DNA from: Desulfomonilia bacterium
GTDB taxonomy: Bacteria > Desulfobacterota > Desulfomonilia > UBA1062
Direction of reading: 5' to 3'
DNA: 64,000 nt
NCBI GenBank assembly: GCA_036567785.1
Contig: DATCTV010000002.1
Span: 23,038-87,037 of the forward strand
The notes below the pieces were generated by a model. The model was not told the DNA's origin and searched no databases. It was given only the letters and a program-made list of their open reading frames with translations. Each line of letters opens with the position of its first letter. The first letter of the stretch is position 1. A program made the position numbers and the translations under genes. Below, piece by piece: positions 6,586-46,566 of this stretch.

Positions 6586-6586
6586 C

Positions 6587-29310: not shown

Positions 29311-29442
29311 GAAGTCAACAATTTATTTTATTTTCAAAGTCTTTCGGCAGATAGCCTAAATAAATTAAATATTTAAAATTTATTTTTATCATAAAAAAAT
29401 GGATATTATTCAAATCAATACTATTCAGACTTATTTTCGTTC

Positions 29443-29495
29443 TTGACATACAGTATGCCAGACATAATAATATACAATAATGAAGTTTCATTATT
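29443..29495 (+). promoter_or_regulatory. Putative promoter and operator for the plus-strand TetR gene and the large operon
   Basis: TTGACA at 29443-29448, then 17 nt, then AATAAT at 29466-29471. Immediately followed by the perfect palindrome AATAATGAA-g-TTCATTATT (29476-29495). Confidence 0.4.
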
Positions 29496-29579
29496 TTATA
29501 TTGCAGTCTTTCATGAGCCGCATCTGAGACAGAGTCATTATCTTCAAAATAATTGAATTTCAGCGTTAAAGGAGATTCC

Positions 29580-30278
29580 GTGCCCAAGATCTCGGATGCA
29601 AGAAGGCAGGAGACACTCGATAAGATCGAACGGTCGGCATCTGAGCTTTTCAGCAAACAGGGATTTCACAACACCCAGGTCATGGACATAGTAAAGGCCG
29701 TGGGCATTTCGGCGGGCACCTTCTATTTATACTTCAAGGACAAGCGCGATCTTTTCAAAAAGATAACCGGCGGCAGTTTCAGAAATTTGCGAGACTATCT
29801 TATAGACCTCAGGCGTCCTGTAAACATATGGGAACGCTCCGAACGGGAACTGAAACTCAAGGAAACATATACGGCTCTATTCGATTACGTGGATTCCAAT
29901 CCTGAACTCATTCTCATGCTTCTCAGGGGAAGCTATGGTGTAGATGAAGATTTTGACGCCAGTTCATGGTTTTCCTTCAACAGCTGGGCGCATGACCTTG
30001 CCGAGGATGTGCAGAACTGGCTTGACCTGGGCATCATATCGGGAATCGATCCCATGATATTCGGTCATGCGGTAGTCGGTATGGCCATGCAGGTCATACA
30101 CAGCTATATCGTGGAAAAACAGTTTACGCGGGAAAAGGCCATAGATGCAATAATCCGCATGAACATGTCCATGTTCGACACCTACATGACCAGTGCGGGC
30201 AGAGACCTTCTCCGAAAGTCCGGTCCGCATGCCGCGGTAGTTGATACCGAAAAGAGTTCCCCTTCCAGCGTGAAATGA
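29580..30278 (+). CDS. TetR-family transcriptional regulator
   Basis: AAAGGAG at 29568-29574, GTG at 29580; the track's ATG at 29553 lacks an RBS. HTH 'FSKQGFHNTQVMDIVKAVGISAGTFYLYFKDKRDLF'. Confidence 0.75.
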   Translation: MPKISDARRQETLDKIERSASELFSKQGFHNTQVMDIVKAVGISAGTFYLYFKDKRDLFKKITGGSFRNLRDYLIDLRRPVNIWERSERELKLKETYTALFDYVDSNPELILMLLRGSYGVDEDFDASSWFSFNSWAHDLAEDVQNWLDLGIISGIDPMIFGHAVVGMAMQVIHSYIVEKQFTREKAIDAIIRMNMSMFDTYMTSAGRDLLRKSGPHAAVVDTEKSSPSSVK

Positions 30279-30324
30279 AGACGAAAATATAAAAATGGTA
30301 TTTTAAAAATATCAGGGAGGTTGC

Positions 30325-31557
30325 ATGAAAAAAAATCTTGACGGGCTCTTTCTCTTCCCTCAGCAATGGGTGGACGTCGAGGCCAGGCGTTTTGCCGCTA
30401 CCGCCCGGCAATGGGCGGACAAAGAGATTATTTCCAGGCGGCTCGATTATCAGAAGGACTATGATACCCTTTTCACACTCATGCGCAAAAAACTCATGGA
30501 CGATATAGGCTTTGAACGCCTGGTGCTTCCTGAGGAAAACGGGGGATACGGCTGGAACAGCCCTGCAAGCGCTCCCGGCATTCTTACTGTATTCACCGAG
30601 ATAGGCCGTGCTGATGCGGCAATCGGATTCACCGCCGCAGTTAAATATGCGATATTCGCCGTAATATCCATGAAACCCAATATCGACAAGGACCTGTGCG
30701 ACAAACTGGCACCGCTCTACTGCGGGGATACACTCAAGAACATTGCCCTCATACTTCCATCGGCCGGATCAGCAGGAACGGATACACCTCTTTTTCACGG
30801 CCGGTCAATCGGGGCTTCACTGAGACCTTCGGGAGACGGATTCATTCTTAACGGTTCAGCACTCCGTCCTGTCGGGCCAGGCTATGATGCCGATCTCTTC
30901 GGGATTGTGGCAGCGGATACAGGCGGCAAAACATGCCTGGCATTCATTCCTGCCGATTTGAAGGGTGTAATAAAAGATCATCCGATAAAGACCACCGGTC
31001 TCAACGGATTTAAAAATACCGACGTAACCTTCAAAGATGTCAGGATACCCGGGAGCTTGGTTGTCATGCGTAATAGCGCAATAAACGAACTTTACTGTTG
31101 GCTTAACCTCCTCCTTGGGGGCACAAGCCTGGGGGCTACTATGAACTTCTTTGAAATCCTCTCGGACTGGTCCGAAAACAGGACGATAAAGGGAAGTTCG
31201 ATCATGAAGGATAATCCGTTGTGCGCGTCAGTCCTTGCGGCCGTCGCGGATGAAATAGCCTGTGTCCGTCTCAATGCATACAGCCTGGCCCATATCATGG
31301 CCAGCTCGGAAGACATCGGCGGACCTGATGTATATACCTTTGCACAAATGCTTGGCTCACGCATACAGCAGTCCTGCATGAACGCTATAAACAGGGGTAT
31401 GGAACTCATGGGTTCCGCCGGGTATTCCAAAGAATGGCATGTTGAAAAACACTGGCGTGACATAAAGACCATCCAGTCATATCTGTGCGGCACCGGATCG
31501 GATGTGCCGGTCAAGATGGATATCGCCCGTTTCTTCTTTGACTTGAAGGAGGTCTGA
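30325..31557 (+). CDS. Atypical acyl-CoA dehydrogenase-like protein (ACAD fold, divergent)
   Basis: RBS GGGAGG, ATG at 30325. The C-terminal 'GSAGYSKEWHVEKHWRDIKTIQ' matches the ACAD C-terminal helix-domain motif but lacks the usual 'IYEGT'. The N-terminus is unlike classical ACADs. Confidence 0.65.
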   Translation: MKKNLDGLFLFPQQWVDVEARRFAATARQWADKEIISRRLDYQKDYDTLFTLMRKKLMDDIGFERLVLPEENGGYGWNSPASAPGILTVFTEIGRADAAIGFTAAVKYAIFAVISMKPNIDKDLCDKLAPLYCGDTLKNIALILPSAGSAGTDTPLFHGRSIGASLRPSGDGFILNGSALRPVGPGYDADLFGIVAADTGGKTCLAFIPADLKGVIKDHPIKTTGLNGFKNTDVTFKDVRIPGSLVVMRNSAINELYCWLNLLLGGTSLGATMNFFEILSDWSENRTIKGSSIMKDNPLCASVLAAVADEIACVRLNAYSLAHIMASSEDIGGPDVYTFAQMLGSRIQQSCMNAINRGMELMGSAGYSKEWHVEKHWRDIKTIQSYLCGTGSDVPVKMDIARFFFDLKEV

Positions 31558-31559
31558 TT

Positions 31560-32834
31560 ATGCGGCACTTTGATGAATTTTCGGTTTCACTGGAACATGT
31601 ATCGCCGATGGAGAAGCACCTTCGCCGTATCGTGCGAAACTGGGCTGAAAAAGAGGTCATGCCCAACCGCCGCAGATATGACGAAGACTGGAAGGAACAT
31701 ACTATCATCGAACCTGCATTCGACAAGCTCATGGCGGGTCTGGGCATGCAGAAGGCGCTGTTTCCCGAAGAGCTTGGCGGCTGGGGGATAGGACACTCGG
31801 ATTATGTCTTCCGCATCTGTTATGCATTGAGCGAAGAGATCGGGCGTGCCGACACTGCCATTGCAGTAGCCTTCCTTGTGACCCTCTGGCCCCTTACAAC
31901 CATTCTTGTCGAGCCTCATGTCAACATGCGTCTGGCCCGTGAACTTGCACCCATATTCTGCAATGCGAAAAAGGCCGTCTTCTCCGCTCTCACAATGACC
32001 GAACCGCAGGGTGGCGCAGACATAGAAAACATGGGCCTGCTTGGCGGCAGGACGCTTCGCACCACCGCACGTCTTGAAGGCGACGAATGGGTGATAAACG
32101 GCCACAAGCTCTGGCCCACAAACTCCGGGGGCGTCTCAAAGCTCTTCGGGGTTCCATGCACTACAAAACCCGGCTCCAGCGACAAAAACGACTTTGCGAT
32201 CATATTCGTACCGACCGACCTCCCCGGAGTGAGCGAGGGAAACCCCTATGAAAAGGCCGGCATGGCTGCGGACAAGAACAGCGACATCTGGTTCGACAAT
32301 GTCCGCGTCCCGTCATGGTACCGTGCACACGGCCCGGGCCTTGACGCCCAGACCTTTGCCGAAATCATCCCCTGGGGACAGATAGCCAGCATCGGATTCA
32401 TGACCGGGGCCATGCTCAACCTGTACGAAAGGCTCTATGAATTTGTCTCGACCCGCACTTACAATAACCGCCCCCTGAAAGAGAATGACGCCATCGCCGG
32501 GGTCATAGGCCGCATTGCCGGCGACATAGATATATGCCGCATCCTGGGGTATGAAACCGCCTGCATCGGAGACCGCAGAAACAAGGCCTATGGCAGGCCG
32601 ATACACGACGAGGAGGTAATTGCAAAAGTACGCAACATAAAGGACTTCGTCTCTGACAGGACGGTCGAAAACTTCGGCCGCGCAATGGATGTGCTGGGCG
32701 TCTACGGTGCCGATAGGGACTGGGATATTGAGAAGCACTGGCGCGATGTCAAGATCATCCAGCTCTGGATGGGCGGCAAACAACTCTGCCAGATGGAAGC
32801 GGCCCGCTATTATTTCAACTGCGAAACCCTGTGA
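31560..32834 (+). CDS. Atypical acyl-CoA dehydrogenase-like protein, paralog of the previous gene
   Basis: RBS GAAGGAGG, ATG at 31560, 3 nt after the upstream stop. C-terminal 'GVYGADRDWDIEKHWRDVKIIQLWMGG'. Paralogous to 30325-31557. Confidence 0.65.
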   Translation: MRHFDEFSVSLEHVSPMEKHLRRIVRNWAEKEVMPNRRRYDEDWKEHTIIEPAFDKLMAGLGMQKALFPEELGGWGIGHSDYVFRICYALSEEIGRADTAIAVAFLVTLWPLTTILVEPHVNMRLARELAPIFCNAKKAVFSALTMTEPQGGADIENMGLLGGRTLRTTARLEGDEWVINGHKLWPTNSGGVSKLFGVPCTTKPGSSDKNDFAIIFVPTDLPGVSEGNPYEKAGMAADKNSDIWFDNVRVPSWYRAHGPGLDAQTFAEIIPWGQIASIGFMTGAMLNLYERLYEFVSTRTYNNRPLKENDAIAGVIGRIAGDIDICRILGYETACIGDRRNKAYGRPIHDEEVIAKVRNIKDFVSDRTVENFGRAMDVLGVYGADRDWDIEKHWRDVKIIQLWMGGKQLCQMEAARYYFNCETL

Positions 32835-32859
32835 TTAAATGCGGCATGTGGAGGTAATC

Positions 32860-33267
32860 ATGTCAGAAGAAAAAAGCCGGTTTGCGGCAGGCAGTATATT
32901 ATCAGAGTTATTGAAGAAGCCTGGATTCAAGGATGATGTAAGGGATGCGCTCAAAAGCATCGACCCGGATGCAGGGCGCGAACTGGTGAGAACCTTTTTA
33001 TGGCAGGATCTGGAATTCAGCCTGGGTCTGATGGGAGGCCTGCCGGCCATAGCCAATACCTTTATCCGGGCTATTGATGAACTCCTTATCGAGATAAATG
33101 AAAAATATCCCATGGAACTCCTTAAAGGCTTTGCAGATTCGCTCATTAAAGATACCGACACCGAATCCCTCGGGCGGGCACTCAGGAATGCCCGCCCCTA
33201 TATTGACGCCCTGGGGCCCATTTTTAAAAAGGCCTGGCAGGACGCACGAGATGGAGAGAGAACATGA
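32860..33267 (+). CDS. Hypothetical alpha-helical protein, paralog family member 1
   Basis: GGAGG at 32850-32854, ATG at 32860; the track's ATG at 32839 lacks an RBS. Shares 'ELVRTFLWQDLEFSLGLMGGLP' with the next gene ('SLVRTILWQDIEVVFGVMGALP'). Confidence 0.5.
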   Translation: MSEEKSRFAAGSILSELLKKPGFKDDVRDALKSIDPDAGRELVRTFLWQDLEFSLGLMGGLPAIANTFIRAIDELLIEINEKYPMELLKGFADSLIKDTDTESLGRALRNARPYIDALGPIFKKAWQDARDGERT

Positions 33268-33881
33268 GCGGAATAATCAAAGAACTTATCAAGAGTCCGT
33301 TTATCAAGGGCATGATCAGGAGAAGGCTTAAGGAAATCACGCCAGAAGAGGCCCGCTCCCTTGTCAGAACGATCCTATGGCAGGACATCGAGGTCGTTTT
33401 CGGTGTAATGGGCGCCCTGCCCTCCTGTATCAATGCCGCAGCAGCAGCCATGGGCACACTTGCTCATGAGCTTAAGGCAAAGGTCTCGCCTGAAATGTCA
33501 AAAGGATTTGCCATGAGCATCATTCAAGACATCGATACAGCCATCATCAAAGACAGCACACATGCATTGGCAGAACTTTCGGGCAGCATAATAGAAGCAT
33601 CGCCCGAACTCAAAAATTTCATAATCGATAAGTTGCCGGGGATAATCGCCACAGGCATAAATTCAACTGCATCCGGAATAAACAAGCTCTGCAAAGAAGA
33701 CCCGGCATTGATTGGCAGCTTTGTCAATTCATTGGCCGGCAGTCTTGACAAGCAGGCTCTGAACGAGGCCACTCTCAATATCACTGAAGCCTTCCTCGAC
33801 ACGGGGCCCGGTCTTGCCGGCTGGACACTGAAGCTCATCAAGCGCCGTGCTTCAAAGCGTTTCAAGCGTACGGGCAAGTAA
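33264..33881 (+). CDS. Hypothetical alpha-helical protein, paralog family member 2
   Basis: ATG at 33264 overlaps the upstream stop (ATGA); RBS GGAGAGA. 205 aa, no recognisable domain. Ends with a basic tail 'KLIKRRASKRFKRTGK'. Confidence 0.55.
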   Translation: MSGIIKELIKSPFIKGMIRRRLKEITPEEARSLVRTILWQDIEVVFGVMGALPSCINAAAAAMGTLAHELKAKVSPEMSKGFAMSIIQDIDTAIIKDSTHALAELSGSIIEASPELKNFIIDKLPGIIATGINSTASGINKLCKEDPALIGSFVNSLAGSLDKQALNEATLNITEAFLDTGPGLAGWTLKLIKRRASKRFKRTGK

Positions 33882-33919
33882 ATTTATTGAAGAATAAAAT
33901 TAAAGGGGGTCTTCCTGCA

Positions 33920-35218
33920 ATGAACAGAAGCAATTATCAAGACCAGATCAATGAGATTACAGGCCGCATCGGCGCCGGAATTCTGCATGCGGGATGCACG
34001 GCTCGCATTTTCGCCGCTGTGGCCGGAAATATCATCAATAGCTGGTCAGGTGCGAGTGCAATAAAAAAGAAGGTGACATCACCTCTTACATACCTGATCG
34101 CAAAGATCCAGAAAAACAATAAGCATGTAATATCCGCTCATAAAGCATCCATACCGGCGGATGCCGCCAGACTCATCACCCTCTTTGCAATAATGTTCAA
34201 CAATACTCATCCGAAAGGTCAGACCGTTGAAAATTCCAATGATGGCGCAGCTATAAAGGCCTTTATCGAAAACCTAGACTTCGGAGAGATCATGGAGATG
34301 GCCGAGAAATCTGACCCGTGCATCCTTAAAGCCATTCGGTCCTTCAATGATGAGATATGGAAATATCCCGCCAAGGTCGGATCTCTTATAGCGACTGTTA
34401 TTGCGTTAATGAACACTACGTTAAAGGCTTTCCGTGAACTGCTCCTTCCTATCGAGCAAACCATCGGACCGGACCTTCTGGCAGACATGCTGCTTTCGGT
34501 TATCCGGGGGCTTGACGGTTCACAGACTGCAAAACTCGTAAATACCGCAGGAGAGGTCATCAGAAGGCTGCATACAGGGAGCCTTCTCCTGGGCAAAGGC
34601 GGCAAGCCCCTGTTGCAGCACTATCTGACAGACCTTCTTAAAAACTGCTTTTCCGGACTCGACCATGAACTCATGAAAAAGCTGCACATAATCTTCTCGG
34701 AAGACCTCCTGAGCATTGCAAATGCAGTATCCGATGCAAAGAATGACAATCCCGGGATCATTCTGTCATCTCTGGCTTCAATGGGGTCGGTGCAGAATTC
34801 CCGTGTCAGGGCCAAATCCCGCAGATTGCGCATTTATGAGGATATAGATCAAAGAGATTTCAATACCGCCATCTCTGAGAGCATATCCGATCTCGACTCA
34901 TACGAAATCGCAGAACTCGTAAACGGCCTGTGCAGGGTCTTCAACAGAGTCCATTCTGTAAAGCCTGATATCGTCAATTCTCTTGCCTGCGGAATTGTGG
35001 ATTCAATAGACCCCGGAGAAACAGAGAAAACTCTCAAGTGGCTCATTCCCGGTCTGGTACAGGCCGTCAAACCGCTTGCTCCTGCAATCATGCCGGAGAT
35101 TATCCGCGGACTGAGTGAGCTTATCAGACCTGATGGCGGATATCAGAGTTCAGAACAGACCGGGGCGATCAGAGAACTCAGGGAGGCGATTGCCCTTGCC
35201 GCCGGAGGTGATGAATGA
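33920..35218 (+). CDS. Hypothetical alpha-helical protein (433 aa), possibly a distant relative of the two preceding genes
   Basis: AAAGGGGG at 33902-33909, ATG at 33920; the track begins at a TTG at 33887. No recognisable motifs. Its stop overlaps the next start. Confidence 0.5.
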   Translation: MNRSNYQDQINEITGRIGAGILHAGCTARIFAAVAGNIINSWSGASAIKKKVTSPLTYLIAKIQKNNKHVISAHKASIPADAARLITLFAIMFNNTHPKGQTVENSNDGAAIKAFIENLDFGEIMEMAEKSDPCILKAIRSFNDEIWKYPAKVGSLIATVIALMNTTLKAFRELLLPIEQTIGPDLLADMLLSVIRGLDGSQTAKLVNTAGEVIRRLHTGSLLLGKGGKPLLQHYLTDLLKNCFSGLDHELMKKLHIIFSEDLLSIANAVSDAKNDNPGIILSSLASMGSVQNSRVRAKSRRLRIYEDIDQRDFNTAISESISDLDSYEIAELVNGLCRVFNRVHSVKPDIVNSLACGIVDSIDPGETEKTLKWLIPGLVQAVKPLAPAIMPEIIRGLSELIRPDGGYQSSEQTGAIRELREAIALAAGGDE

Positions 35219-36348
35219 TCGACAAACTTAAATCAGCCGCGACATCCCTCGAGAATGAATTTCTCGTCAAATGGAAAAATAAAGGCAGGTCGGTCATGGG
35301 CTACACATGCACCTTCATACCTGAAGAGATAATGCACGCGGCAGGCCTGCTTCCGTACCGGATCAGGGGCATAGGAACCACGTCGCTTTCTATCGGCGAC
35401 TCATATTTCGGACCTGTCAACTGCAGCTTTCCCAAGTGCATGCTGCAGCTCGCCGGCATAAATGCCTACAAATTCCTTGACGGCGCCATAATCTCCAACG
35501 GCTGCGACTCCATGCGCAGGCTCGAAGAATGCTGGAGAAAGGCCGGCGATGACTATCCCGGCATACTTCCCGGATATTATGAGTTCTTCTCGGTGCCGCA
35601 CAAGGCAGTTGACTACAGCATCGACTTCTTCACTGAAGAGCTTCAGGACATGATTGCAACTATCGAGAATCATTTCGGGAAAAAAATCGAAGAGTCTGAC
35701 CTCAGGAAATCGATCAGACTCTATAACACCGGAAGAAAGCTCCTAAAAAATCTCGATGAGCTGAGATACGGCTGCAATACGCCAATCACCGGAGAAGATG
35801 CGCTCTCGATACTTATTGCCGGCCATGCAATCCCCAGAGAGGACTTCAACCGCATCCTGAAAAGAATACTGGCTGCGCTAGAAAAGGCGCCTCATCTCAC
35901 GGAAGGGAAAAAACGCATCATGCTCATCGGAAGCGCAAGCGACGATCTGGACTTCATCAGGGTAATCGAAGAGGCGGGCGCGGTGGTGGTGGCGGATACC
36001 GTATGCTTCGGCTCGAGACTTCATGCAAGCCTTGTTGACGAAACAGACGAGCCTGTTCACGCCCTTGCCTCCCATTATCTCAGCAACAGCATATGCCCGC
36101 GAATGCTGGGCAATTATAAAGACAGGAGATCCTACATCAGGGACATCGTAAAAAAGGCTGATGTCGACGGTCTCATTCTTCAGAATATAAGGTTCTGCGA
36201 CCTGCACGGTTCGGAAAACGGCGTCCTTGAAAGGGACTTCGAGGCCGAAGGCATACCCTGCATGAGGCTAGAAAGGGAATACGGTCCGCTGGTCGAAACC
36301 GGCCGGATAAGAATGCGCGTGGATGCGTTCATGGAAAGAATTTCTTAA
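35215..36348 (+). CDS. 2-hydroxyacyl-CoA dehydratase / benzoyl-CoA reductase family subunit (HgdB / BcrC / BzdN-like)
   Basis: GGAGGTG precedes ATG at 35215, which overlaps the upstream stop. 'VMGYTCTFIPEEIMHAAGLLPYRIRG' is the hallmark N-terminal motif of the HgdB/BcrC family. 377 aa. Confidence 0.75.
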   Translation: MIDKLKSAATSLENEFLVKWKNKGRSVMGYTCTFIPEEIMHAAGLLPYRIRGIGTTSLSIGDSYFGPVNCSFPKCMLQLAGINAYKFLDGAIISNGCDSMRRLEECWRKAGDDYPGILPGYYEFFSVPHKAVDYSIDFFTEELQDMIATIENHFGKKIEESDLRKSIRLYNTGRKLLKNLDELRYGCNTPITGEDALSILIAGHAIPREDFNRILKRILAALEKAPHLTEGKKRIMLIGSASDDLDFIRVIEEAGAVVVADTVCFGSRLHASLVDETDEPVHALASHYLSNSICPRMLGNYKDRRSYIRDIVKKADVDGLILQNIRFCDLHGSENGVLERDFEAEGIPCMRLEREYGPLVETGRIRMRVDAFMERIS

Positions 36349-36360
36349 GGAGGACCAGGA

Positions 36361-36603
36361 ATGTGTCAGAACGACAGGGAAGAAATTGCAATGGAAGTCC
36401 TTTGCGGCATCGCCATGGATGACGCCAGGATGGTTGCGGAACGCCAGCGTGCGATCGATGCGCTCACTCTGTTTCAGGCGGATGCGCTTAAGTCTCTCGA
36501 ATATATCGCACGCCGTACCGACTTGGATATCCTGAGAGAGCGCGCAAGGCTCTACATCGATAGAATAAAATCAGGGGCCGTCCTCAGCATGACCTCGGTT
36601 TGA
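36361..36603 (+). CDS. Small hypothetical protein (80 aa) inside the operon
   Basis: Strong RBS TAAGGAGG at 36347-36354, ATG at 36361. No homology recognised. Confidence 0.4.
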   Translation: MCQNDREEIAMEVLCGIAMDDARMVAERQRAIDALTLFQADALKSLEYIARRTDLDILRERARLYIDRIKSGAVLSMTSV

Positions 36604-36616
36604 AAGGTATGGGCAT

Positions 36617-38026: not shown

Positions 38027-38805
38027 TAGCTGCAGGCTGCGATGTAGGTTCGCTCACCACCAAGGCGGTCATACTCAACAACACGCGAATCATAAGCCAT
38101 GCCCTTATCCCTTCAACCTTCGACCCTGCAAAATCCGCAGAAGAGGTGATGGAAAAGGCCCTTTCCACGGCCGGACTTCAAATGAAGGATATCGGGTTCT
38201 GCGTGGGCACCGGTTACGGACGGGAACGCATTCCTTTCGTGCACAAGTCGGTCTCGGAGATAGCCTGCCATGCCAGGGGCGCGCATTGGCTGCTGCCTTC
38301 GGTGCGCACCGTCATTGACGTGGGCGGCCAGGACTGCAAGGCAACCCGTCTCGATGAGAAAGGCAATATCGTCAGATTTTTTACCAATGACAAATGTGCA
38401 TCAGGAACCGGGCGCTTCCTCGAGGTAATGGCTGGTATTCTCGGACTCGATCTCAAGGAGCTGGGGGATATTTCAGTGCAGGCCCGTAACCCCGTAACCC
38501 TTGCAGCCACATGTACGGTCTGGGCGCAGGCCGAGGTGATCATGCACCTCAACAATAAAACCCCGAAGGCTGATCTGGCGGCAGGCATCAATGACGCCAT
38601 GGCGGCGAGGATCGCGATCCTGGCAAAATCGGCAGGCCTCGAAAAGGATGTCTGCATGACTGGCGGTGTGGCCAAAAACACGGGCGTTATAGAGGCAATG
38701 GAAAAGCAGCTTAATGTCCCGATACGCAGGCTCAGGGTCGATCCCCAGGTCATAGGCGCCCTGGGCGCGGCCATCTTTGCCAGAGAAAAAATGGGAGGCG
38801 GATAA
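38023..38805 (+). CDS. BadF/BadG/BcrA/BcrD-type ATPase (HgdC-like activator / BCR ATPase subunit)
   Basis: ATG at 38023 overlaps the upstream TGA. 'AAGCDVGSLTTKAVIL' (ASKHA phosphate-1), 'DVGGQDCKA', 'NDKCASGTGRFLE'. The Cys-Cys pair that bridges the [4Fe-4S] cluster is present. Confidence 0.8.
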   Translation: MIAAGCDVGSLTTKAVILNNTRIISHALIPSTFDPAKSAEEVMEKALSTAGLQMKDIGFCVGTGYGRERIPFVHKSVSEIACHARGAHWLLPSVRTVIDVGGQDCKATRLDEKGNIVRFFTNDKCASGTGRFLEVMAGILGLDLKELGDISVQARNPVTLAATCTVWAQAEVIMHLNNKTPKADLAAGINDAMAARIAILAKSAGLEKDVCMTGGVAKNTGVIEAMEKQLNVPIRRLRVDPQVIGALGAAIFAREKMGGG

Positions 38806-39590
38806 TGTTTGCTGCAGGCTGTGATGTCGGCTCATTAAGCGCGAAAGCGGTCATCATGAAGGATGATGAAATACTCGCCACCGAGGTGATATTTTCCAAG
38901 CCTGACCCGGGTGACTCGGCCCGGACAGTCATGGAGAATGCCCTCATCAAGGCGGGTATTTCTTTAAACGATATCGGATACTGCATCGGCACCGGCTATG
39001 GAAGAAACTCCATTCCCTTTGCCGACAGCGTCGAGTCCGAAATCACGTGTCACGGAAAAGGGGCGCAGTGGCTCATGCCTGACGTGCGCATGGTGATTGA
39101 CATAGGCGGTCAGGATGCCAAGGCAATCAGGCTGGACGATACCGGAAAGGTGGTCCGTTTCGCATATAATGACCGCTGCGCATCGGGTACTGGCAGGTTC
39201 CTGGAGGTGATGGCGGCTGCAATGGGGATAAGGCTCGAAGACATGGGTATGATATCCGCGCAGGGAAGGAACCCTGTCGCCATATCAAATCAGTGCGTGG
39301 TCTTTGCCGAAACAGAGATCATATCACTTGTAAATGCCGGCAAGGACCTGGCCGACATAGTGAGCGGCCTGCACAAGGCACTGGCCCACAGGGTGGCGTC
39401 GCTTGCCCATGGAGTGGAACTCGATAAACGACTCACCATGACCGGTGGTGTGGCTAAAAACCGGGGCATGTTTCTTGCCCTGCAGGAGGCGCTCGGGGTG
39501 GATATCACCCCCGTTGAAGCCGACCCGCAGATTATCGGCGCCCTCGGAGCGGCTGTTCTGGCACGTACGAAAGTGAACGGGGCCGGATAG
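38805..39590 (+). CDS. BadF/BadG/BcrA/BcrD-type ATPase, second tandem paralog
   Basis: RBS GGGAGGCGG, ATG at 38805. 'AAGCDVGSLSAKAVIM', 'DIGGQDAKA', 'NDRCASGTGRFLE'. Paralogous to the previous gene; two different ATPase subunits, as in class I BCR. Confidence 0.8.
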   Translation: MFAAGCDVGSLSAKAVIMKDDEILATEVIFSKPDPGDSARTVMENALIKAGISLNDIGYCIGTGYGRNSIPFADSVESEITCHGKGAQWLMPDVRMVIDIGGQDAKAIRLDDTGKVVRFAYNDRCASGTGRFLEVMAAAMGIRLEDMGMISAQGRNPVAISNQCVVFAETEIISLVNAGKDLADIVSGLHKALAHRVASLAHGVELDKRLTMTGGVAKNRGMFLALQEALGVDITPVEADPQIIGALGAAVLARTKVNGAG

Positions 39591-40336
39591 TGTCTGAGAT
39601 GGAACTCTTTACGGATACCATCGCAGCTGTAAGGTCATTTGTGGCGCAGTCATCTGCCATAAAATCCTGGAAAGAGGACTCCTCATGCCTTTGGCCTTCC
39701 GGCGGAAGCCGCAACATTGTCCTCAAAGACGACACCGGGCTCGAACTTGGCAGTCCTGAAATGGATTCCGTGAGCTGCCTTTTGTGGACACAGGACAAAA
39801 GCCTGGTTGAAGACGGCAGGATAACCGTTATCGGGCGTGATTTTCCTGAATGCAAAGATGAAAGCCTGCCCTTCGGCAAGGTAGTCATAGCAGGAGTCGA
39901 AGGCTTCAACGAGGATAACGCCTATGAGAGGCACAAGGATATGGATTTTCTGCGTTATGATCTTGACCTCAAGGGCTTCATGCTGCGTGCAGCTTCACAG
40001 TTCATGCGCGAATGGTGCCGCATCAGCAGGGATGCGCTGCAAAAAGGCTTCTCTGCACTTATACTGGGTTCGGCCCTGATGCGGCTCTTTCGAGCGCAAC
40101 CATTTGTCAAATCGGTAGAGGTCATCTACCTTACTTCCAGCACCGAAGATATACTCAGGCTCAGGGAAATAACGACGCCTGCGGAAATGATCATTGCCGC
40201 AATGAACAAGATGGCCGTTGAGATGGATTTCGAATGCGACAGCTGCGATTACAGGACTGTCTGCGATGATGCGACCCAGCTCAAGAGCATGCGCGAGAGC
40301 CTGATGAAAAAATCAGTGGAGGCGGCCCGTGGCTGA
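39590..40336 (+). CDS. Hypothetical protein with C-terminal Cys cluster (CDSCDYRTVCDD)
   Basis: GTG at 39590 overlaps the upstream TAG; an alternative ATG lies at 39599. 248 aa; possible metal-binding motif 'DFECDSCDYRTVCDD'. Confidence 0.5.
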   Translation: MSEMELFTDTIAAVRSFVAQSSAIKSWKEDSSCLWPSGGSRNIVLKDDTGLELGSPEMDSVSCLLWTQDKSLVEDGRITVIGRDFPECKDESLPFGKVVIAGVEGFNEDNAYERHKDMDFLRYDLDLKGFMLRAASQFMREWCRISRDALQKGFSALILGSALMRLFRAQPFVKSVEVIYLTSSTEDILRLREITTPAEMIIAAMNKMAVEMDFECDSCDYRTVCDDATQLKSMRESLMKKSVEAARG

Positions 40337-41090
40337 AACCGGAATAATAGCGCTTTGCGGCAAGGGCGGCGTGGGCAAGACTTCGGTATCGGCCATTATG
40401 GTGAAGCTTCTGGCGAAAAAGCATCACGCAAAGATACTCGCAATCGACGCCGACCCGGCAGTGGGTCTGGCCACAGCACTTGGCGTAAGTGTAATGAGGA
40501 CGGTGAATGATATCCGCAATGATCTCATCTCGAACCTTAAAAACGGCGGTAAGGACCGCGAGACTATAAGAAATCTCGATTACGAGGTGTTCGGTGCCCT
40601 CAAGGAGCAGGACGGTTACGCCCTGCTTGCCATAGGAAGACCCGAGGATGAAGGGTGTTTCTGCCGCGTGAATTCCCTTCTGAAAGACATCATCCGTGAC
40701 CTTGCAGGAAATTTCGATATTGTCCTCATCGACGGCGAGGCCGGGATAGAACAGATCAACCGCCGGGTAATGAAGACTGTCGATCATCTGGTACTTGTTT
40801 CTGATACTTCGGCAAAAGGCATCAATGTGGCCAATACCGTTGCTTCGGTTGCCAAAGACAGAAACGCGGTTGATTTCAGCGATATCGGCCTCATCCTAAA
40901 CAGGGTGAGAAGCGAAACGGAAGTCATGGATATCGGCACCAGGACCAGCCTCAGCATACTGGGCGCAATCGGTGAAGACGAGTTTATCAGGGATTACGAT
41001 TTCAGAGGCATCCCCCTTGCCGGCATACCTGATACCTCGCCCTCGGTGACTGCGGTTAACGGCATCCTTGAAAAAATGCACATTATTTGA
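40329..41090 (+). CDS. CooC/AcsF-like MinD-superfamily P-loop ATPase (metallocentre maturation-type)
   Basis: GTG at 40329. Deviant Walker A 'CGKGGVGKTS' right at the N-terminus, and a 'GCFC' Cys-X-Cys motif at about residue 108, as in the nickel-insertion ATPase CooC. Confidence 0.65.
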   Translation: MAETGIIALCGKGGVGKTSVSAIMVKLLAKKHHAKILAIDADPAVGLATALGVSVMRTVNDIRNDLISNLKNGGKDRETIRNLDYEVFGALKEQDGYALLAIGRPEDEGCFCRVNSLLKDIIRDLAGNFDIVLIDGEAGIEQINRRVMKTVDHLVLVSDTSAKGINVANTVASVAKDRNAVDFSDIGLILNRVRSETEVMDIGTRTSLSILGAIGEDEFIRDYDFRGIPLAGIPDTSPSVTAVNGILEKMHII

Positions 41091-41103
41091 AGAGGAGCCT
41101 TTC

Positions 41104-42237
41104 ATGGCAGAAAAGACCTCAATACTGAAAGAATTCGATAAGCTCCTTGAGACCCCTTTGAACCATCTGGTCGAACAGGCTGCTTCGAACGGCCGCATTC
41201 CTATTGGATATTCCTGCTCCTTTGTGCCCGAAGCACTTCTGATGGCGGACAGGCTTTTCCCGGTGAGGCTTCAGGCCCCGGGCATTGCGGGCACCGAGAT
41301 TGCTGACAATTATCTTTCAAGCCTGACATGCTCTTACACACGAAGCCTTCTCGAATTCGCGATTGACGGCCGCTATGACCTTATAAAGGGATGGGTTTTT
41401 GTGCCTTCATGCGCACACATGCAGCGTCTTTACGACAACCTGGATTATCTCACAAAACCCGCATTCAATCACATCCTCGATGTCCCGCGCAAGGTGAACG
41501 AAGCGGCGATTGCATGGCAGGCCGATGAACTGAGGATACTCTCCCGGCGGCTTGCATCACATTTCGATATCGACATGAGCGACGCCGCGCTTATGAAGGC
41601 AATCGCTGAGTGGAACGAATTTTCAGCAGAAATCGAATCGATTGGTGAACTCAGGAAAAACCCTGAACCTCCCCTGACCGGAGCGGAGTTCCACCGCATC
41701 GTAATGGCGTCTCTTGCATCACCCAGGGATTTGATAATGCCTTACATAAGAGAACTGCGCACCGAAATCGAAAAACGGACCGAGCGGAAAAAATACCGGG
41801 CCAGACTGATGCTGGCAGGCTCTCACCTGCATGATCCTGAATTCATAAGGATCATCGAATCGCAGGGAGGCCTCGTCGTTGCCGACAGGATATGCACAGG
41901 CTCAATCCCCGGGCTCATGCCTGTCATATCCGATGGTGATCCCGTAAGGGCTCTTGCCGAACACACTTTCAGAAAAACCCTTTGTCCCCGGATGATGGAG
42001 AATTTCGACCTCAGGCTTAAGAATATTGTCGAAACCGTTAAAGAATACAGGGTGGACGGTGTAGTAATCGAGATAATCAAGTTCTGCGACCTCTGGGGGG
42101 TTGATTCCATGCCTCTTGTAAGGTCACTGCGTGCACAGGGTATTCCCGTGCTCAAACTCGAGCGCGAATACCGTCAGGGAGGAGAAGGACAACTGCGCAC
42201 CAGGGTGCAGGCCTTCATCGAAAGCATGGGAAAATGA
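41104..42237 (+). CDS. Second HgdB/BcrC-family subunit
   Basis: GAGGAG at 41092-41097, ATG at 41104; the track starts at 41068 without an RBS. 'IPIGYSCSFVPEALLMADRLFPVRLQ' parallels 35215-36348. C-terminal 'QLRTRVQAFIESMGK'. Confidence 0.7.
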   Translation: MAEKTSILKEFDKLLETPLNHLVEQAASNGRIPIGYSCSFVPEALLMADRLFPVRLQAPGIAGTEIADNYLSSLTCSYTRSLLEFAIDGRYDLIKGWVFVPSCAHMQRLYDNLDYLTKPAFNHILDVPRKVNEAAIAWQADELRILSRRLASHFDIDMSDAALMKAIAEWNEFSAEIESIGELRKNPEPPLTGAEFHRIVMASLASPRDLIMPYIRELRTEIEKRTERKKYRARLMLAGSHLHDPEFIRIIESQGGLVVADRICTGSIPGLMPVISDGDPVRALAEHTFRKTLCPRMMENFDLRLKNIVETVKEYRVDGVVIEIIKFCDLWGVDSMPLVRSLRAQGIPVLKLEREYRQGGEGQLRTRVQAFIESMGK

Positions 42238-42277
42238 AAATCATAAAAATGCGTTTACAAAGAATCTGAGGCGAAAA

Positions 42278-43591
42278 ATGGGACATCTCGCAGGCAAGGA
42301 CATATTCAACAAAGTCGGCAATAAAATCGACAGCCTTCATGTTCGTTGTACGAATAATGATAACCTCAGAGAAATTGCAAGGGCCCTTTTTACCGAAGAA
42401 GAGGCCGGGGTTTTTGTAAAGCTGCCTTATGTATTTTCCACTCTTGAAAGGATTCACAAGATCACAGGGCTTCCGGAAAAGCATCTTGAACACATGCTGA
42501 ATGGTCTCAGCGGCAAAGGGCTTGTCGTAGATATATGGGCCAATGGCCGCTATCATTACATGCCCTCCCCCATGATAATAGGCATCTTCGAGTTCACCAT
42601 GATGCGCACCGGCAAAGACAGCAGGCCAGATGAATGGGGGCCTCTCTTTTACAGGTACCTTGAAAACCCGGACAGCATTTATAATGTCAATCTGGGTGAC
42701 GGCCAGTTCATGTCTCCCGCACGGGTACTGCCCAATGACGAATCCACCCTGCCCGATGAATACACCCGCATCCTCGATTATGAATCGGCTGCAAGCATAA
42801 CTGAAAGGGCCTCACTTTGCGCAGTAGGATTGTGCTCGTGCCGGCATGAAAAGCTTCATGCCGGAGTCAAAACATGTGACCTGCCGCTCGATACCTGCGC
42901 CAGCTTCGGTTGGGCCGCCGATTACCTCATCCGGCACAATATGGCCAGAAAGGTCTCCGCATCCGAAATGAAGGAGACACTGGCGCTGTCCGGAAAGAAG
43001 GGTCTCGTGCTCTGCGCGGACAATGTCAGGTGGAATGTGACCTTTATCTGTCAGTGCTGCTCATGCTGCTGCAACCTGCTGAGAGGCATTACGAAACACG
43101 GTTATCCCAATACCGTTGTCACCTCAAGCTTCATCGCAAATGTAATGAGCGACAACTGCAACGGTTGCTCGAAATGCGAAAAGGCATGCCCGGTGAACGC
43201 GATAACAATGCTTGAAGACGGGTCATCTTCTGTTCCAAAAACAAAAAAGGCCTCTGTCAATGAGGATTTTTGCCTGGGATGCGGCGTATGCACACTTCTT
43301 TGCAAAACAAAATGCCTGACGCTTAAAAAGCGAACAAGCCGTTTCATTCATCCAGAGACGACATTTGAAAGAGTTATCCTACAGTGCCTTGAACGCGGAA
43401 CGCTGCAGAACCAGATATTCGATAACCCTGAAAGCCTGACGCAAACCTTCATGCGCGGGCTCATAAAAGGTTTTCTGAAGCTCGTTCCGGCCAGACAGAT
43501 CGAGATGAGCGAAACTCTGAGATCGGCCTTCCTTGCATCTGCAAGGCTCATCGTAAGAATTCAGGGCAAGGGATGGATAACAGAGATTTAA
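42278..43591 (+). CDS. Poly-cysteine iron-sulfur protein with two ferredoxin-type CxxCxxCxxxCP motifs
   Basis: GAGG, then ATG at 42278; the track's 5' extension overlaps the previous gene. Motifs 'CNGCSKCEKACP' and 'CLGCGVCTLLC', plus Cys-dense 'CQCCSCCCN' and 'CAVGLCSCRHEKLHAGVKTCDLPLDTC'. Probable electron-transfer partner. Confidence 0.6.
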   Translation: MGHLAGKDIFNKVGNKIDSLHVRCTNNDNLREIARALFTEEEAGVFVKLPYVFSTLERIHKITGLPEKHLEHMLNGLSGKGLVVDIWANGRYHYMPSPMIIGIFEFTMMRTGKDSRPDEWGPLFYRYLENPDSIYNVNLGDGQFMSPARVLPNDESTLPDEYTRILDYESAASITERASLCAVGLCSCRHEKLHAGVKTCDLPLDTCASFGWAADYLIRHNMARKVSASEMKETLALSGKKGLVLCADNVRWNVTFICQCCSCCCNLLRGITKHGYPNTVVTSSFIANVMSDNCNGCSKCEKACPVNAITMLEDGSSSVPKTKKASVNEDFCLGCGVCTLLCKTKCLTLKKRTSRFIHPETTFERVILQCLERGTLQNQIFDNPESLTQTFMRGLIKGFLKLVPARQIEMSETLRSAFLASARLIVRIQGKGWITEI

Positions 43592-43631
43592 GAGAAACAT
43601 GAAATATAAACTATGATCACCGGGAGGAGAT

Positions 43632-44429
43632 ATGGCGAAGAAGTACTTCGGCGGCTGTGATGTGGGTTCGACAACTGGCAAGGTCGTTATCCTTGATGAA
43701 GACGGCTCGATCGCCGCGACTATTATCATACCCAGCGAGATCGACCCTGAACTTACATCAAAGCTGGCGCTTGAAAAAGCCTGCGCACAGGTTCCGGGCC
43801 TTGGCGCATACACTGAACTGGCCTATCTGGTGGGCACCGGCTACGGCAGGAACGAGGTCGTATTCGCCGATGAGAATGTCTCGGAGATCAGCTGCCATGC
43901 CATGGGCGCTTTTTTCTGCGACCCGGAGATCAAGACCATCGTGGACATAGGCGGGCAGGATGTCAAAACCATAGCACTGGATGGCGACGGCTCGGTGCTG
44001 GAATTCGCCATGAACGACAAATGCGCTGCAGGAACGGGACGCTTCTTCGAGGCGATGAGCCGGATATTCCGCATGGACCTCGACGAGTTCTCCCGGCTCT
44101 CCCTGAACGCGGTAAAATCAATACCCGTAACGGCTCAGTGCAGCGTCTTTGCCGAAAGCGAGGTGATCAGCCTTTTAGCCAGGCGCAATCCGCCTGAAGA
44201 TATAGCTGCAGGCATACAGACTTCCGTGGCAAAACGCTGTTTCACCCTCCTCAAGAGAATCGGGATGAACCCCAGGATAACCGTAACCGGAGGCTGCGCC
44301 AAAAACCAGGGCCTCATAAAAGCTCTCACAAAAATAATTGATATGGATGTGACCCGGCTCTCCGTTGACCCGCAGATCATCGGCGCCCTCGGTGCGGCGG
44401 TCTTTGCAAGAAGAAAGGGGATGTCCTGA
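43632..44429 (+). CDS. BadF/BadG/BcrA/BcrD-type ATPase (HgdC-like activase), third copy
   Basis: RBS GGGAGGAG, ATG at 43632. 'FGGCDVGSTTGKVVIL', 'DIGGQDVKT', 'NDKCAAGTGRFFE'. Confidence 0.8.
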   Translation: MAKKYFGGCDVGSTTGKVVILDEDGSIAATIIIPSEIDPELTSKLALEKACAQVPGLGAYTELAYLVGTGYGRNEVVFADENVSEISCHAMGAFFCDPEIKTIVDIGGQDVKTIALDGDGSVLEFAMNDKCAAGTGRFFEAMSRIFRMDLDEFSRLSLNAVKSIPVTAQCSVFAESEVISLLARRNPPEDIAAGIQTSVAKRCFTLLKRIGMNPRITVTGGCAKNQGLIKALTKIIDMDVTRLSVDPQIIGALGAAVFARRKGMS

Positions 44430-45988
44430 TGATGAGCGTCCTTAAAGGGGAGTACGCGAAAGGAGTAAAAATGGGGATAAGGAAAAACATAACTCAAATA
44501 AAAGCCCTTATTAAAATTCTGCCCGGACTGATCAAGGGTCTCATGCAGAATACCCTGGCAGGCTATCTCGTTAATGCAGCGAACCTCAGGGATGCATCAG
44601 TCTATGTAAAATACTGGTCGCTCAACTGGATCTTTATCCTCAGACTCGGCCTTATGCTGCTTGTTAAAAAAGGGCCTCTCGGGCTTGTGCGCGTTATTCT
44701 CAATTCCCCCTGGGTGCTTATCCTCTTAAGGGTGAACGGCCTGTGCTGCAGGCTTGCCAGAGGAAGGAGCGGCATATATCTCGAGGCCATCTGCACAACG
44801 GTTCATACCATAACCATGACCCTGGAAGAGCAGCTTGAAGATATATTCCTTGACCATGATAACCTTGTAGTCAACGAGGACCTTGTGCCGACCGATATAG
44901 TCCGCGCGATGGGACTCAAGGCCTGGCTTCTGGAGGCCATGGGAATACTGCTTCCGATTCTTGCACCGGAGGCGGATCTCAGATACATCGACGAGGCGGA
45001 AAACGCTGGCATCAACCCCGATGCATGCAGCCTGCCCAAGGCTACAGTCGGCATGGTCCTCAAGGGGCATATGCCGAGCGGGGTAGCCCTTGTCAGTTCG
45101 AACATGCCATGCGATGCGGGAGCGGCTTCATATTCCCTTATCCAGCAGGAGCTCAAGGTGCCTATCTACAGGCTGGATGTGCCTTTTAACTTCTACAACG
45201 AACGTGCGGAAAAGCACTTTGCAGGAGATCTGAAAGACATGATAGCGTGGCTTGAGGAAAATACTCCCGGCCGCATGGACTGGAAACGCCTGCGTGAGAT
45301 ATGCGAGGGGCGAAACAGGATGCGCGAACTTGAGCTGGAGCTGTGGGATCTTATCAGGATCCGTCCGGCGCCTCTGGCCGGCGAGGCGGTTATATTGAGC
45401 CATCTCTGGCATTTCAACCTGATGCCCGGACACAAGACCGCAATCAGACACTATGAAAATCTTGTAAGGCTCGCGAAAAAAAATCTCGAACAGGGCATCC
45501 CCGCAACCAAAAACGAAAGATACCGTGCAGTCCTGTGGAATCCTCCCTTCTGCCAGTTCATCGACCTTCTGAACTGGGCTGAACGCACTTATGGGCTCAC
45601 GCTCATCAACGACAGCATGACGTACAACAGACACAGGGCAATCGACACCTCCACCCCGGATTCAATGCTCCTTGGTCTGGCCAGTACAATCATGCAGGGG
45701 CCCATGGTAAGGCACACCAGGGGGCCGGCCGAAAACTATCTGGATGATATCTTCCGCATGTACAAGCAGTTTGACCTGGATATGGTCTGGATAGCGAATC
45801 ATGTCGGATGCAAGACCGGGCAGGCGATGAACGGGATCCTCCGCGAAAGATGCCGTGCCATGAAAATACCGCTTCTTATCCTTGATTATGACCTGCTGGA
45901 TAACCGTATCGTATCGCATGAAGGCATGATGAATCAGGTGGAGCATTTCATGGAGAACGTCATGAAGGCAAAGCGGCTTGATCAATAG
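44429..45988 (+). CDS. Second HgdA/BcrB-family subunit with atypical hydrophobic N-terminal extension
   Basis: ATG at 44429 overlaps the upstream TGA. The C-terminal 380 aa parallel 36617-38026 ('CSLPKATVGMVLKGHMP...', 'IANHVGCKTGQAMN...'). The first roughly 130 aa, with two hydrophobic stretches, are unusual. The start is uncertain. Confidence 0.65.
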   Translation: MMSVLKGEYAKGVKMGIRKNITQIKALIKILPGLIKGLMQNTLAGYLVNAANLRDASVYVKYWSLNWIFILRLGLMLLVKKGPLGLVRVILNSPWVLILLRVNGLCCRLARGRSGIYLEAICTTVHTITMTLEEQLEDIFLDHDNLVVNEDLVPTDIVRAMGLKAWLLEAMGILLPILAPEADLRYIDEAENAGINPDACSLPKATVGMVLKGHMPSGVALVSSNMPCDAGAASYSLIQQELKVPIYRLDVPFNFYNERAEKHFAGDLKDMIAWLEENTPGRMDWKRLREICEGRNRMRELELELWDLIRIRPAPLAGEAVILSHLWHFNLMPGHKTAIRHYENLVRLAKKNLEQGIPATKNERYRAVLWNPPFCQFIDLLNWAERTYGLTLINDSMTYNRHRAIDTSTPDSMLLGLASTIMQGPMVRHTRGPAENYLDDIFRMYKQFDLDMVWIANHVGCKTGQAMNGILRERCRAMKIPLLILDYDLLDNRIVSHEGMMNQVEHFMENVMKAKRLDQ

Positions 45989-46059
45989 ACTCGTTCAGAT
46001 GAACTTGACTTTAGACAAGAAATCCCATATTGATAAGCATTATCAATATGGAGAATTTT

Positions 46060-46566
46060 ATGAAAGCAAAATCCGTCAAGGAAACTTCATTGTCAATGTC
46101 ACACCTCATGACCCCGCAGGATGCCAATATCGCGGGCAATGTTCACGGAGGCGTCATAATGAAACTTATCGACGATGCAGCCGGTACTGTGGCTGCAAGG
46201 CATTCGACAGGAAATGCTGTTACGGCATCAATCGACAGGCTGAGCTTCTTCAGCCCTGTTTTCATAGGGAACCTCCTTACATTAAGGGCAAGCATCAACC
46301 ATGTCGGCAGGACTTCAATGGAAATAGGAGTAAGGGTCGAGGCTGAAGACATCTTCACCGGTGTTGTCAGACATACAGCATCGGCTTATCTCACTTTTGT
46401 GGCTCTGGATGAAAATTTGAAACCGAAAGAAATCCCGGGGTTGATACTGGAAAACGATAACGAGAACAGACGCTACCGCGAAGCCATTGCAAGAAGACAA
46501 AACCGTCTGAATGAAAGAAAAAAGGAGGAAGCCTGCCAGAAAGGCCCGGATTCATGCAGTCTATGA
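46060..46566 (+). CDS. Acyl-CoA thioesterase (hotdog fold, YciA-like)
   Basis: ATG at 46060 is 6 nt after GGAG. '[28 protein letters not shown]' is the hotdog thioesterase active-site region. Confidence 0.7.

Follow-up and report, generated by a model that had tools for sequence, protein, structure and literature searches.

A conserved gene cluster from uncultured bacteria and its candidate new family of ATP-dependent low-potential iron–sulfur reductases

The iron–sulfur enzymes known as archerases carry out what are, to our knowledge, the most reducing reactions in biology, and we know of only three characterized types, namely aryl-CoA reductases, 2-hydroxyacyl-CoA dehydratases and double-cubane cluster proteins (DCCPs). 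A 64,000-nucleotide stretch of the genome of a Desulfomonilia bacterium (contig DATCTV010000002.1; hereafter the window, in which all positions are numbered) holds a TetR-linked run of genes whose products belong to this superfamily, as a preliminary description of the DNA had proposed, and raises the question of which kind of enzyme is encoded and on what class of substrate it would act. We cautiously favor the reading that the locus encodes an undescribed family of ATP-dependent low-potential Fe-S reductases within the benzoyl-CoA reductase (BCR)/2-hydroxyacyl-CoA dehydratase/DCCP superfamily, probably acting on a CoA thioester. As judged from its aligned subunits, the first of two enzyme modules has the subunit logic of class I BCRs, and its partner proteins, one like acetyl-CoA synthase (ACS) and one of the CooC type, are without precedent in the superfamily. 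The locus would then represent a fourth, well-conserved archerase architecture with new obligatory partners. No description of the cluster was found in the literature searched, the coverage of which was limited, so that an earlier publication is possible.

Operon structure and modular conservation

Eighteen consecutive plus-strand genes span 29553-46566 according to the layout and translations of the open reading frames (ORFs), and 16 of them are closely packed between 30325 and 45988, with the TetR gene, a promoter-like site and a palindrome upstream and a thioesterase gene downstream (Table 1). With the likeliest start codons, the intergenic distances are 46, 2, 4, -4, 38, -4, 12, 13, -4, -1 and -1 (or +8) nucleotides and then -8, 13, 40, 40, -1 (or +2) and 59. 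In the ORF list, u443, hgdB2 and the polyferredoxin are extended upstream by overlong starts, and the TetR ORF opens at 29553 with its likely start at the GTG at 29580, just before which stands AAAGGAGA. Independent gene calls on an identical public contig (Logan assembly, run SRR2059973) gave the same genes. The Pfam families found along the run, HGD-D in four proteins and BcrAD_BadFG in three, agree with every family call of the preliminary description, and the tight same-strand layout that it had reported was likewise recovered.

Promoter-like and terminator-like matches were no commoner over the whole region than in shuffled sequence, and the case for co-transcription is therefore made from gene spacing and synteny. 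This chance frequency speaks for the view that the genes are merely neighbors and not one functional system, a view that is nevertheless scarcely credible, as start and stop codons overlap throughout and the same arrangement is found in 78 loci that are spread over different orders and phyla, with alpha subunits as little as 44% identical. A further locus outside this set (L086) widens the conserved gene order still more. An Rfam scan of 28500-47500 found no riboswitch and no other RNA family, and hydropathy analysis of the locus proteins revealed no clear membrane span, the N-terminus of hgdA2 being the only moderately hydrophobic part. The gene set is confirmed as a real operon, the order of which is conserved beyond chance.

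These loci came from a one-genome-per-species scan with the first HgdA-like protein as the query, which returned 171 related loci; 78 were fetched, the ORFs of each locus were assigned to the window genes, and 38 with enough flanking DNA were taken as complete. All related loci lie in metagenome-assembled genomes of uncultured organisms, mostly Desulfomonilia, Smithella/Syntrophales and other Thermodesulfobacteriota, with a few from Leptospirales/Spirochaetes and Bacillota, and eleven genomes carry two loci each. The HgdA1 family is narrow, since among 1.84 billion representative proteins there are about seven full-length clusters above 400 bits and the next ones score at most 273 bits. Around these distant HgdA relatives (170-273 bits), gene clusters again join HgdB, HgdA, two ATPases and a CdhC-family protein in differing orders; one of them repeats the complete architecture from the acyl-CoA dehydrogenase (ACAD)-like genes to CooC, and others include a GMC oxidoreductase or a lactate-dehydrogenase-like flavoprotein (FAD_binding_4 plus CCG).

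Conservation is graded among the complete loci (Table 1). The core, present in 35-38 of the 38, consists of u443, an HgdB-like and an HgdA-like protein, two different ATPases, the ACS-middle-domain protein and the CooC-type ATPase. The block of ACAD-like genes, u142 and u205 is missing from 16 of the 78 loci, where a gene for a GMC-family flavoprotein is found instead, either beside u443 or just behind the ATPases. Because the core is near-constant, the ACAD block is swapped for GMC and the second HgdAB module is optional, the system is modular, with a core of seven to eight genes and an exchangeable flavoprotein block (ACAD or GMC), and the fixed 16-gene operon of the preliminary description does not hold. 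The thioesterase, linked in close relatives only, is incidental to it.

Duplications of alpha-subunit genes were observed in several loci. Three of them (L003, L008 and L028) have two hgdA2 paralogs in the order hgdB2-hgdA2a-(polyferredoxin)-ATPase3-hgdA2b, and the unusual order of module 2 in the window (41104-45988) is explained by retention of only the copy behind the ATPase. In many loci among L017-L045, a second hgdA1-like gene adjoins the first (hgdB1-hgdA1'-80aa-hgdA1), which suggests alternative alpha subunits for one beta subunit.

A common pathway context was sought among the flanking genes of the related loci and none was consistent; in particular, beta-oxidation genes are not conserved around the unit. 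Sporadic neighbors comprise a flavodoxin-ferredoxin fusion (8 of the 78 loci), CoA ligase (7), crotonase (4) and D-2-hydroxyacid dehydrogenase (3), together with aldehyde:ferredoxin oxidoreductase, a geranylgeranyl-reductase-like flavoprotein and URO-D, and genes of a polar amino-acid ABC transporter run divergently from about seven loci.

Two paralogous modules compared with characterized enzymes

The structure of BzdNO offers the closest frame for the two modules, in that six cysteines of BzdN ligate an [8Fe-9S] double cubane, and Cys95, Cys128 and Cys380 of BzdO hold a [4Fe-4S] cluster with a water ligand beside Glu65 and His131 (PMC11971306). In HMMER alignments, Cys32, 70, 97, 264, 294 and 328 of hgdB1 and Cys38, 76, 103, 264, 294 and 328 of hgdB2, which has exactly six cysteines, fall on the six positions of BzdN and DCCP, and all six are kept in 100% of the sequences compared, namely 15 of hgdB1 and 11 of hgdB2, the window included. 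The beta subunits are thus predicted to hold the ligands of an [8Fe-9S] double cubane. The three BzdO cysteines align with Cys135, Cys164 and Cys415 of hgdA1, which are invariant in the family, and their equivalents in hgdA2 are Cys200, Cys228 and Cys461, a pattern consistent with a three-cysteine [4Fe-4S] cluster with a free iron site in both alpha subunits. Besides the cluster cysteines, the hgdA1 family also keeps Cys125, Cys158, Cys307 and an invariant His311 (YIDHYTTD), residues that may form an additional metal site.

The preliminary description had read the two modules as one BCR-type reductase plus one dehydratase- or DCCP-type enzyme. In a neighbor-joining tree, the two beta families are sister clades outside BzdN, MbdN, HadC and DCCP, to which they are 20-28% identical, and hgdA1 and hgdA2 are nearer to one another (E = 9e-35) than to any solved reference. 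As both modules are mutually closest and share the same cysteine sets, that division is abandoned, and the sequences indicate that the modules are paralogous enzymes of one new family. The tree references, transcribed from HMMER alignments, were those four solved proteins, and the position of the beta pair outside characterized enzymes holds against these four. None of the HgdA-like, HgdB-like and ATPase proteins scored high enough to pass a curated NCBIfam cut-off, be it that of BcrABCD, BzdNOPQ, HadBC or the double-cubane family. Scores against equivalog cut-offs were 148/454 for bzdN, 23/449 for bzdO, 199/380 for bzdQ, 146/421 for bcrC, 150/700 for HadC and 36/750 for HadB.

The ATPases follow the modules, with two distinct ones in the first and a single one in the second, as had been described. 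ATPases 1 and 2 are 53% identical, and ATPase 3 is 43-45% identical to each of them; two cysteines (125 and 164) are conserved in all three and are taken, by alignment, as putative cluster ligands. Because ATPases 1 and 2 occur together in 37 of the 38 complete loci, a heterodimer is predicted, in which the two would share one bridging [4Fe-4S] cluster. For module 2, a Cys-rich polyferredoxin is the candidate electron carrier. It combines an N-terminal domain without a known family, a C-x-CC-x-CCC motif and a 2x[4Fe-4S] ferredoxin domain, and the 486-residue ORF version, starting from 42131, contains 26 cysteines.

Much of this recalls an ordinary class I aryl-CoA reductase operon for the dearomatization of ring CoA esters, aromatic or partly reduced, such as a substituted benzoyl-CoA or tetrahydronaphthoyl-CoA. 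BzdNOPQ (BzdNO structure 8S02) and MbdONQP have the same four-subunit logic, with a three-Cys alpha subunit, a six-Cys beta subunit and two different HgdC-type ATPases, in the same gene order of beta, alpha, ATPase, ATPase; the cysteines show the same pattern as in BzdN and BzdO, and BzdN is the best solved-structure match of both beta subunits. The match of hgdB2 is nearest to BzdN (1e-29), but hgdB1 is equally near BzdN (9e-40) and HadC (2e-39), the locus beta subunits are just 25-27% identical to BzdN and, lying outside all references in the tree, they are as near to HadC and DCCP as to BzdN. The bzdN, bzdO, bzdQ and bcrA-D scores fall two- to twenty-fold under their cut-offs, and both His131 and Tyr97 of BzdO are substituted in hgdA1. 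In contrast to class I BCRs, both locus ATPases are short (about 260 residues, the size of HgdC), and the ACS middle-domain protein, the CooC-type ATPase and a helical protein of about 430 residues are added as obligatory partners. Neither a dienoyl-CoA hydratase nor a ring hydrolase, a thiolase or a small ferredoxin occurs among the window ORFs scanned, in line with the missing hydratase and ring-hydrolase genes of the preliminary description, and a crotonase gene adjoins only 4 of the 78 fetched loci. An ordinary aryl-CoA reductase is thus an unlikely identity for the locus. The thn operon was also considered as a match and rejected, as its composition differs (ferredoxin, hydratases and thiolases, with no CooC-like or ACS-like genes), and the alicyclic or tetrahydronaphthoyl-type substrate suggested earlier finds no support.

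Among solved structures, the HgdA1 family profile matches HadB best (7.7e-15), and its match to BzdO is weak (E = 2.8e-5). HadBC/HadI, like HgdAB/HgdC and FldBC/FldI, resemble the locus in pairing HGD-D folds with an ASKHA-type ATPase, and ACAD genes adjoin the dehydratase genes in had and fld operons as they do here. The modules could accordingly be 2-hydroxyacyl-CoA dehydratases of amino-acid or 2-hydroxy-acid fermentation, with the ACAD-like proteins as enoyl-CoA reductases in the manner of hadAIBC-acdB-etfBA; the D-2-hydroxyacid dehydrogenase, GMC and lactate/glycolate-dehydrogenase-like (FAD_binding_4 plus CCG) genes of related loci and the divergent amino-acid transporter genes would suit such a role. 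We nonetheless consider it improbable. The dehydratases use one homodimeric activator, whereas module 1 has two different ATPases and only module 2 has one; their operons carry CoA-transferase, Etf and a canonical ACAD, whereas no CoA-transferase or Etf genes are linked here and the canonical catalytic Glu is gone from both ACAD-like proteins. Both beta subunits have the six cysteines of the double-cubane type, of which HadC lacks two and MbdN three, and the HadB and HadC equivalog scores are far under the cut-offs.

The DCCP (6ENO) with its reductase DCCP-R shares the six-Cys motif, and delivery by a single HgdC-like ATPase resembles module 2. The NCBIfam double_cubane model (NF040772) is the best NCBIfam match of both beta subunits, the unit is self-contained with no conserved beta-oxidation genes around it, and a GMC oxidoreductase can replace the ACAD block, all of which would suit DCCP-type reductases for a small or non-thioester substrate, with the flavoproteins and the ACS-like protein in roles unrelated to CoA. 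Yet the two scores, 170 and 162 bits, stay under the cut-off of 350. The DCCP is homodimeric, built from a single type of subunit and without a distinct alpha subunit, whereas the locus always encodes one with the open [4Fe-4S] site of the BzdO/HadB type. In addition, CoA-related parts are linked to it, including the ACS middle (A2) domain with its adenine-stacking Trp, the ACAD fold, CoA ligases in seven loci and the thioesterase. We regard this explanation as quite doubtful. A selenium-linked double-cubane system called SAO was likewise compared and set aside as unrelated, having a different gene set.

Partner proteins and the proposed reaction

The protein encoded behind ATPase 2 matches the middle domain of ACS and nothing else of it. 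It finds the archaeal CdhC structure at 1.8e-7 over that domain only, and an AlphaFold model built from 31 homologs (pLDDT 84) gave 23 significant Foldseek matches, all of them to ACS chains, along about 170 residues. The locus protein has neither the N-terminal domain nor the A-cluster domain of ACS and no Cys-Gly-Cys nickel site, and it scores 44 with the NCBIfam cdhC model, the cut-off of which is 356. The R-I-S motif of the middle domain is retained. In the ACS of Clostridium autoethanogenum with bound acetyl-CoA, the ligand contacts mainly the A2 domain, with Trp405 stacked on its adenine (bioRxiv 10.1101/2024.08.05.606187). In the alignment, the invariant Trp142 of the ACS-like family pairs with its counterpart in the Moorella enzyme and, by the offset, comes to lie within one residue of Trp405. 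At the C-terminus, a conserved C216-x2-C219-x5-C225 lies beyond the point at which both the sequence and the fold alignments to ACS end. As the partnership recurs around distant HgdA relatives, the association extends to a wider clade, and the protein is probably one of the subunits of the enzyme.

The P-loop ATPase encoded directly downstream has CooC1 (3kje) as its best solved-structure match (4e-16), with the CxC motif aligned, and its GKGGVGKT and EGCFC motifs are kept in 54 orthologs. The two genes thus resemble ACS/CdhC with AcsF/CooC in the middle-domain fold, the Trp, the R-I-S motif and the CooC-family gene that follows, and differ in standing in an HgdAB-type enzyme context; the window genes that were scanned include no CO dehydrogenase, corrinoid protein or complete ACS. 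AcsF inserts nickel into ACS, according to the statement cited in PMC10134865. The locus pair is probably a co-opted ACS and nickel-insertase pair, which, if true, would be a new case of the reuse of a metallo-enzyme module. In three loci (L009, L019 and L039), a URO-D family protein is inserted between the CdhC-like and CooC-like genes; this family has the uroporphyrinogen decarboxylase/methylcobamide methyltransferase fold.

The two ACAD-like proteins are the usual flavoprotein partners, and acad2 is conserved more strongly than any other gene of the cluster, with 67-95% identity in most ACAD-type loci and 52-55% in three distant ones. Solved structures are matched at up to 6e-30 by acad2 and at 1.6e-12 by acad1. 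Where the Y-E-G motif has its catalytic Glu, acad2 has Met (QLWMGG), as do 45 orthologs, and its helix-G position, the alternative site used in isovaleryl-CoA dehydrogenase, reads Gly-Gln with no Glu. In acad1 the same motif reads SYLCG, with Leu for the catalytic Glu and a Cys-Gly kept in 41 orthologs, and the W-I-T-N flavin motif is lost, which suggests that acad1 is probably the non-flavin partner of a heteromer. ChsE1-ChsE2, an alpha2beta2 heteromer from steroid side-chain degradation in which one ACAD lacks flavin-binding motifs, offers a likeness by description and not by sequence, in its two adjacent divergent ACAD genes, one without flavin motifs; in contrast to that system, both locus proteins are without the canonical catalytic Glu.

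Three helical proteins complete the set. u142, u205 and u443 are mutually homologous (hhalign probability 97-100%), and family and fold searches found no match for any of them. As u443 stands directly upstream of hgdB1 in all 38 complete loci, it is likely a subunit or scaffold of the core enzyme. The atypical ACADs, the CooC-type ATPase and the paralogy of the helical proteins had all been recognized beforehand and are borne out, and the 'Cys-protein' of the preliminary description, which does bear a Cys motif (C-x2-C-x5-C), can now be specified as the ACS middle-domain protein.

From these parts a mechanism may be proposed for the favored ATP-dependent reductase. Reduced ferredoxin or flavodoxin would reduce the cluster of the ATPases, and ATP hydrolysis would push the electron via the double cubane to the alpha-subunit cluster, where the bound substrate would be reduced. 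The ACS-like protein would serve as a CoA-binding, metal-bearing fifth subunit with the CooC-type ATPase as its maturation factor. Module 2, with its own ATPase and polyferredoxin, would be a paralogous reductase that probably performs a second reduction, either of the same intermediate or of the next, and the flavoprotein block (an ACAD-like heteromer with u142/u205, or the GMC oxidoreductase) would carry out a neighboring redox step. A CoA thioester is the proposed substrate class because an obligatory partner copies the CoA-binding ACS middle domain, because the usual flavoprotein partners have the ACAD fold, and because CoA ligases or a thioesterase are sometimes linked and the regulator is of the TetR type.

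Several points weigh against this interpretation. All cluster and subunit assignments come from alignment alone, and the residues of Birch-type reduction are not all kept in hgdA1, where an invariant Asn167 replaces His131 of BzdO and Ala137 replaces Tyr97; the region of Glu65 lies outside the alignment, with an invariant Glu104 as its candidate equivalent. The cysteine pattern is no strict divider between reductases and dehydratases, given that MbdN is a true reductase subunit despite its three missing positions. The invariant core contains no ferredoxin gene. The dehydrogenase role of the ACAD-like proteins is uncertain, since both lack the catalytic Glu, and the exchange of ACAD for GMC in 16 loci weakens the case for a CoA thioester, the GMC family not being known to us to act on CoA esters; together, this exchange and the missing catalytic base make the substrate class uncertain. 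Finally, BzdNO with its clusters is reported to have been made in E. coli (PMC11971306), so that a CooC-type maturase is not obviously needed for the double cubane.

The invariant pairing of a BCR-like core with a CooC-type ATPase and an ACS remnant admits a bolder reading, namely a nickel- or heterometal-dependent enzyme class with its site on the ACS-like subunit or the Cys-rich alpha subunit, in which ATP-driven electrons would be combined with organometallic or thioester C-C/C-S chemistry on a CoA-bound substrate. We know of no reaction of this type in the BCR/2-hydroxyacyl-CoA dehydratase/DCCP superfamily and hold the idea to be a long shot. With respect to the favored reductase, the system occurs commonly, and often with at least two copies in a genome, in Syntrophales, Smithella and Desulfomonilia, the drivers of terminal carbon degradation in digesters, peat and sediments, and the identity of its substrate would expose an unrecognized, energy-costly step of anaerobic carbon turnover.

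Table 1. Features of the locus by position in the window, with the number of complete related loci (of 38) in which each gene is present
Feature	Position	Strand	Pfam family and remarks	Complete loci
Promoter-like site TTGACA-17-AATAAT	29443-29471	+	11/12 consensus matches	
Palindrome, 16-nucleotide arms	29469-29502	+	overlaps promoter-like site; candidate TetR operator	
TetR-family regulator	29580-30278	+	TetR_N, 3.7e-15; gene call on identical contig	
acad1, ACAD-like protein 1	30325-31557	+	Acyl-CoA_dh, N-terminal and C-terminal domains	30 and 31 for the two ACAD-like genes (~80%)
acad2, ACAD-like protein 2	31560-32834	+	Acyl-CoA_dh, N-terminal, middle and C-terminal domains	as for acad1
u142, helical protein	32839-33267	+	no family	26
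u205, helical protein	33264-33881	+	no family	28
u443, helical protein, 432 residues	33920-35218	+	no known family or fold match	38
hgdB1, HgdB/BzdN-like beta subunit 1	35215-36348	+	HGD-D, 1e-84	38
80-residue protein, conserved motif ERQRAIDALTLF	36361-36603	+	no family	25
hgdA1, HgdA/BzdO-like alpha subunit 1	36617-38026	+	HGD-D, 1e-38	38
ATPase 1, HgdC/BcrAD-type	38023-38805	+	BcrAD_BadFG; Cys125 and Cys164	38
ATPase 2, HgdC/BcrAD-type	38805-39590	+	BcrAD_BadFG	37
ACS middle (A2) domain protein, free-standing (CdhC-like)	39590-40336	+	CdhC, 2e-12; 248 residues	36
CooC-type P-loop ATPase	40329-41090	+	CbiA/MinD-type; GKGGVGKT; CxC at Cys110 and Cys112	35
hgdB2, HgdB/BzdN-like beta subunit 2	41104-42237	+	HGD-D	22 (second module ~55%)
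Cys-rich polyferredoxin	42278-43591	+	ferredoxin domain; 437 residues, 23 Cys	12
ATPase 3, HgdC/BcrAD-type, predicted single activator of module 2	43632-44429	+	BcrAD_BadFG	20
hgdA2, HgdA-like alpha subunit 2	44429-45988	+	HGD-D; N-terminal extension of ~130 residues, moderately hydrophobic	22
Near-perfect palindrome CCATATTGATAAGCATTATCAATATGG, 12-13-bp arms	46025-46051		between hgdA2 stop and thioesterase start	
Thioesterase, 4HBT fold	46048-46566	+	4HBT	2

Neighboring features of the window

The palindrome between hgdA2 and the thioesterase could act as an operator or form an attenuating hairpin. Further downstream, the minus strand encodes a CxxCxxCC-domain protein (46561-46917), which is followed by a flavin-reductase/S-adenosylmethionine-methyltransferase fusion (47060-48454), and both genes are kept in the related locus L008. 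On the upstream side, a divergent RND efflux operon occupies 22867-29309 (AcrB-like protein, membrane-fusion protein and outer-membrane factor) and has a TetR gene of its own on the minus strand (28624-29250), with a palindrome of 18-nucleotide arms at 29271-29309. An AT-rich spacer of 330 bp separates the two TetR genes, each of which faces the promoter of the other.

A separate plus-strand cluster at 2865-16891 contains two glycyl-radical enzymes (3808-6585 and 10021-12399), a DUF2961 protein, a PadR regulator, two SDR/epimerase genes and CoA-transferase A/B (12418-14165), and ends with MmgE/PrpD (14338-15705) and a canonical ACAD (15689-16891); it may represent an uncharacterized glycyl-radical catabolic pathway. 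Lastly, the stretch 52000-56000 is low in GC (0.37-0.40 versus about 0.50 elsewhere), encodes a methyltransferase, a 401-residue ORF without a family and a phospholipase A1, and may have been acquired.

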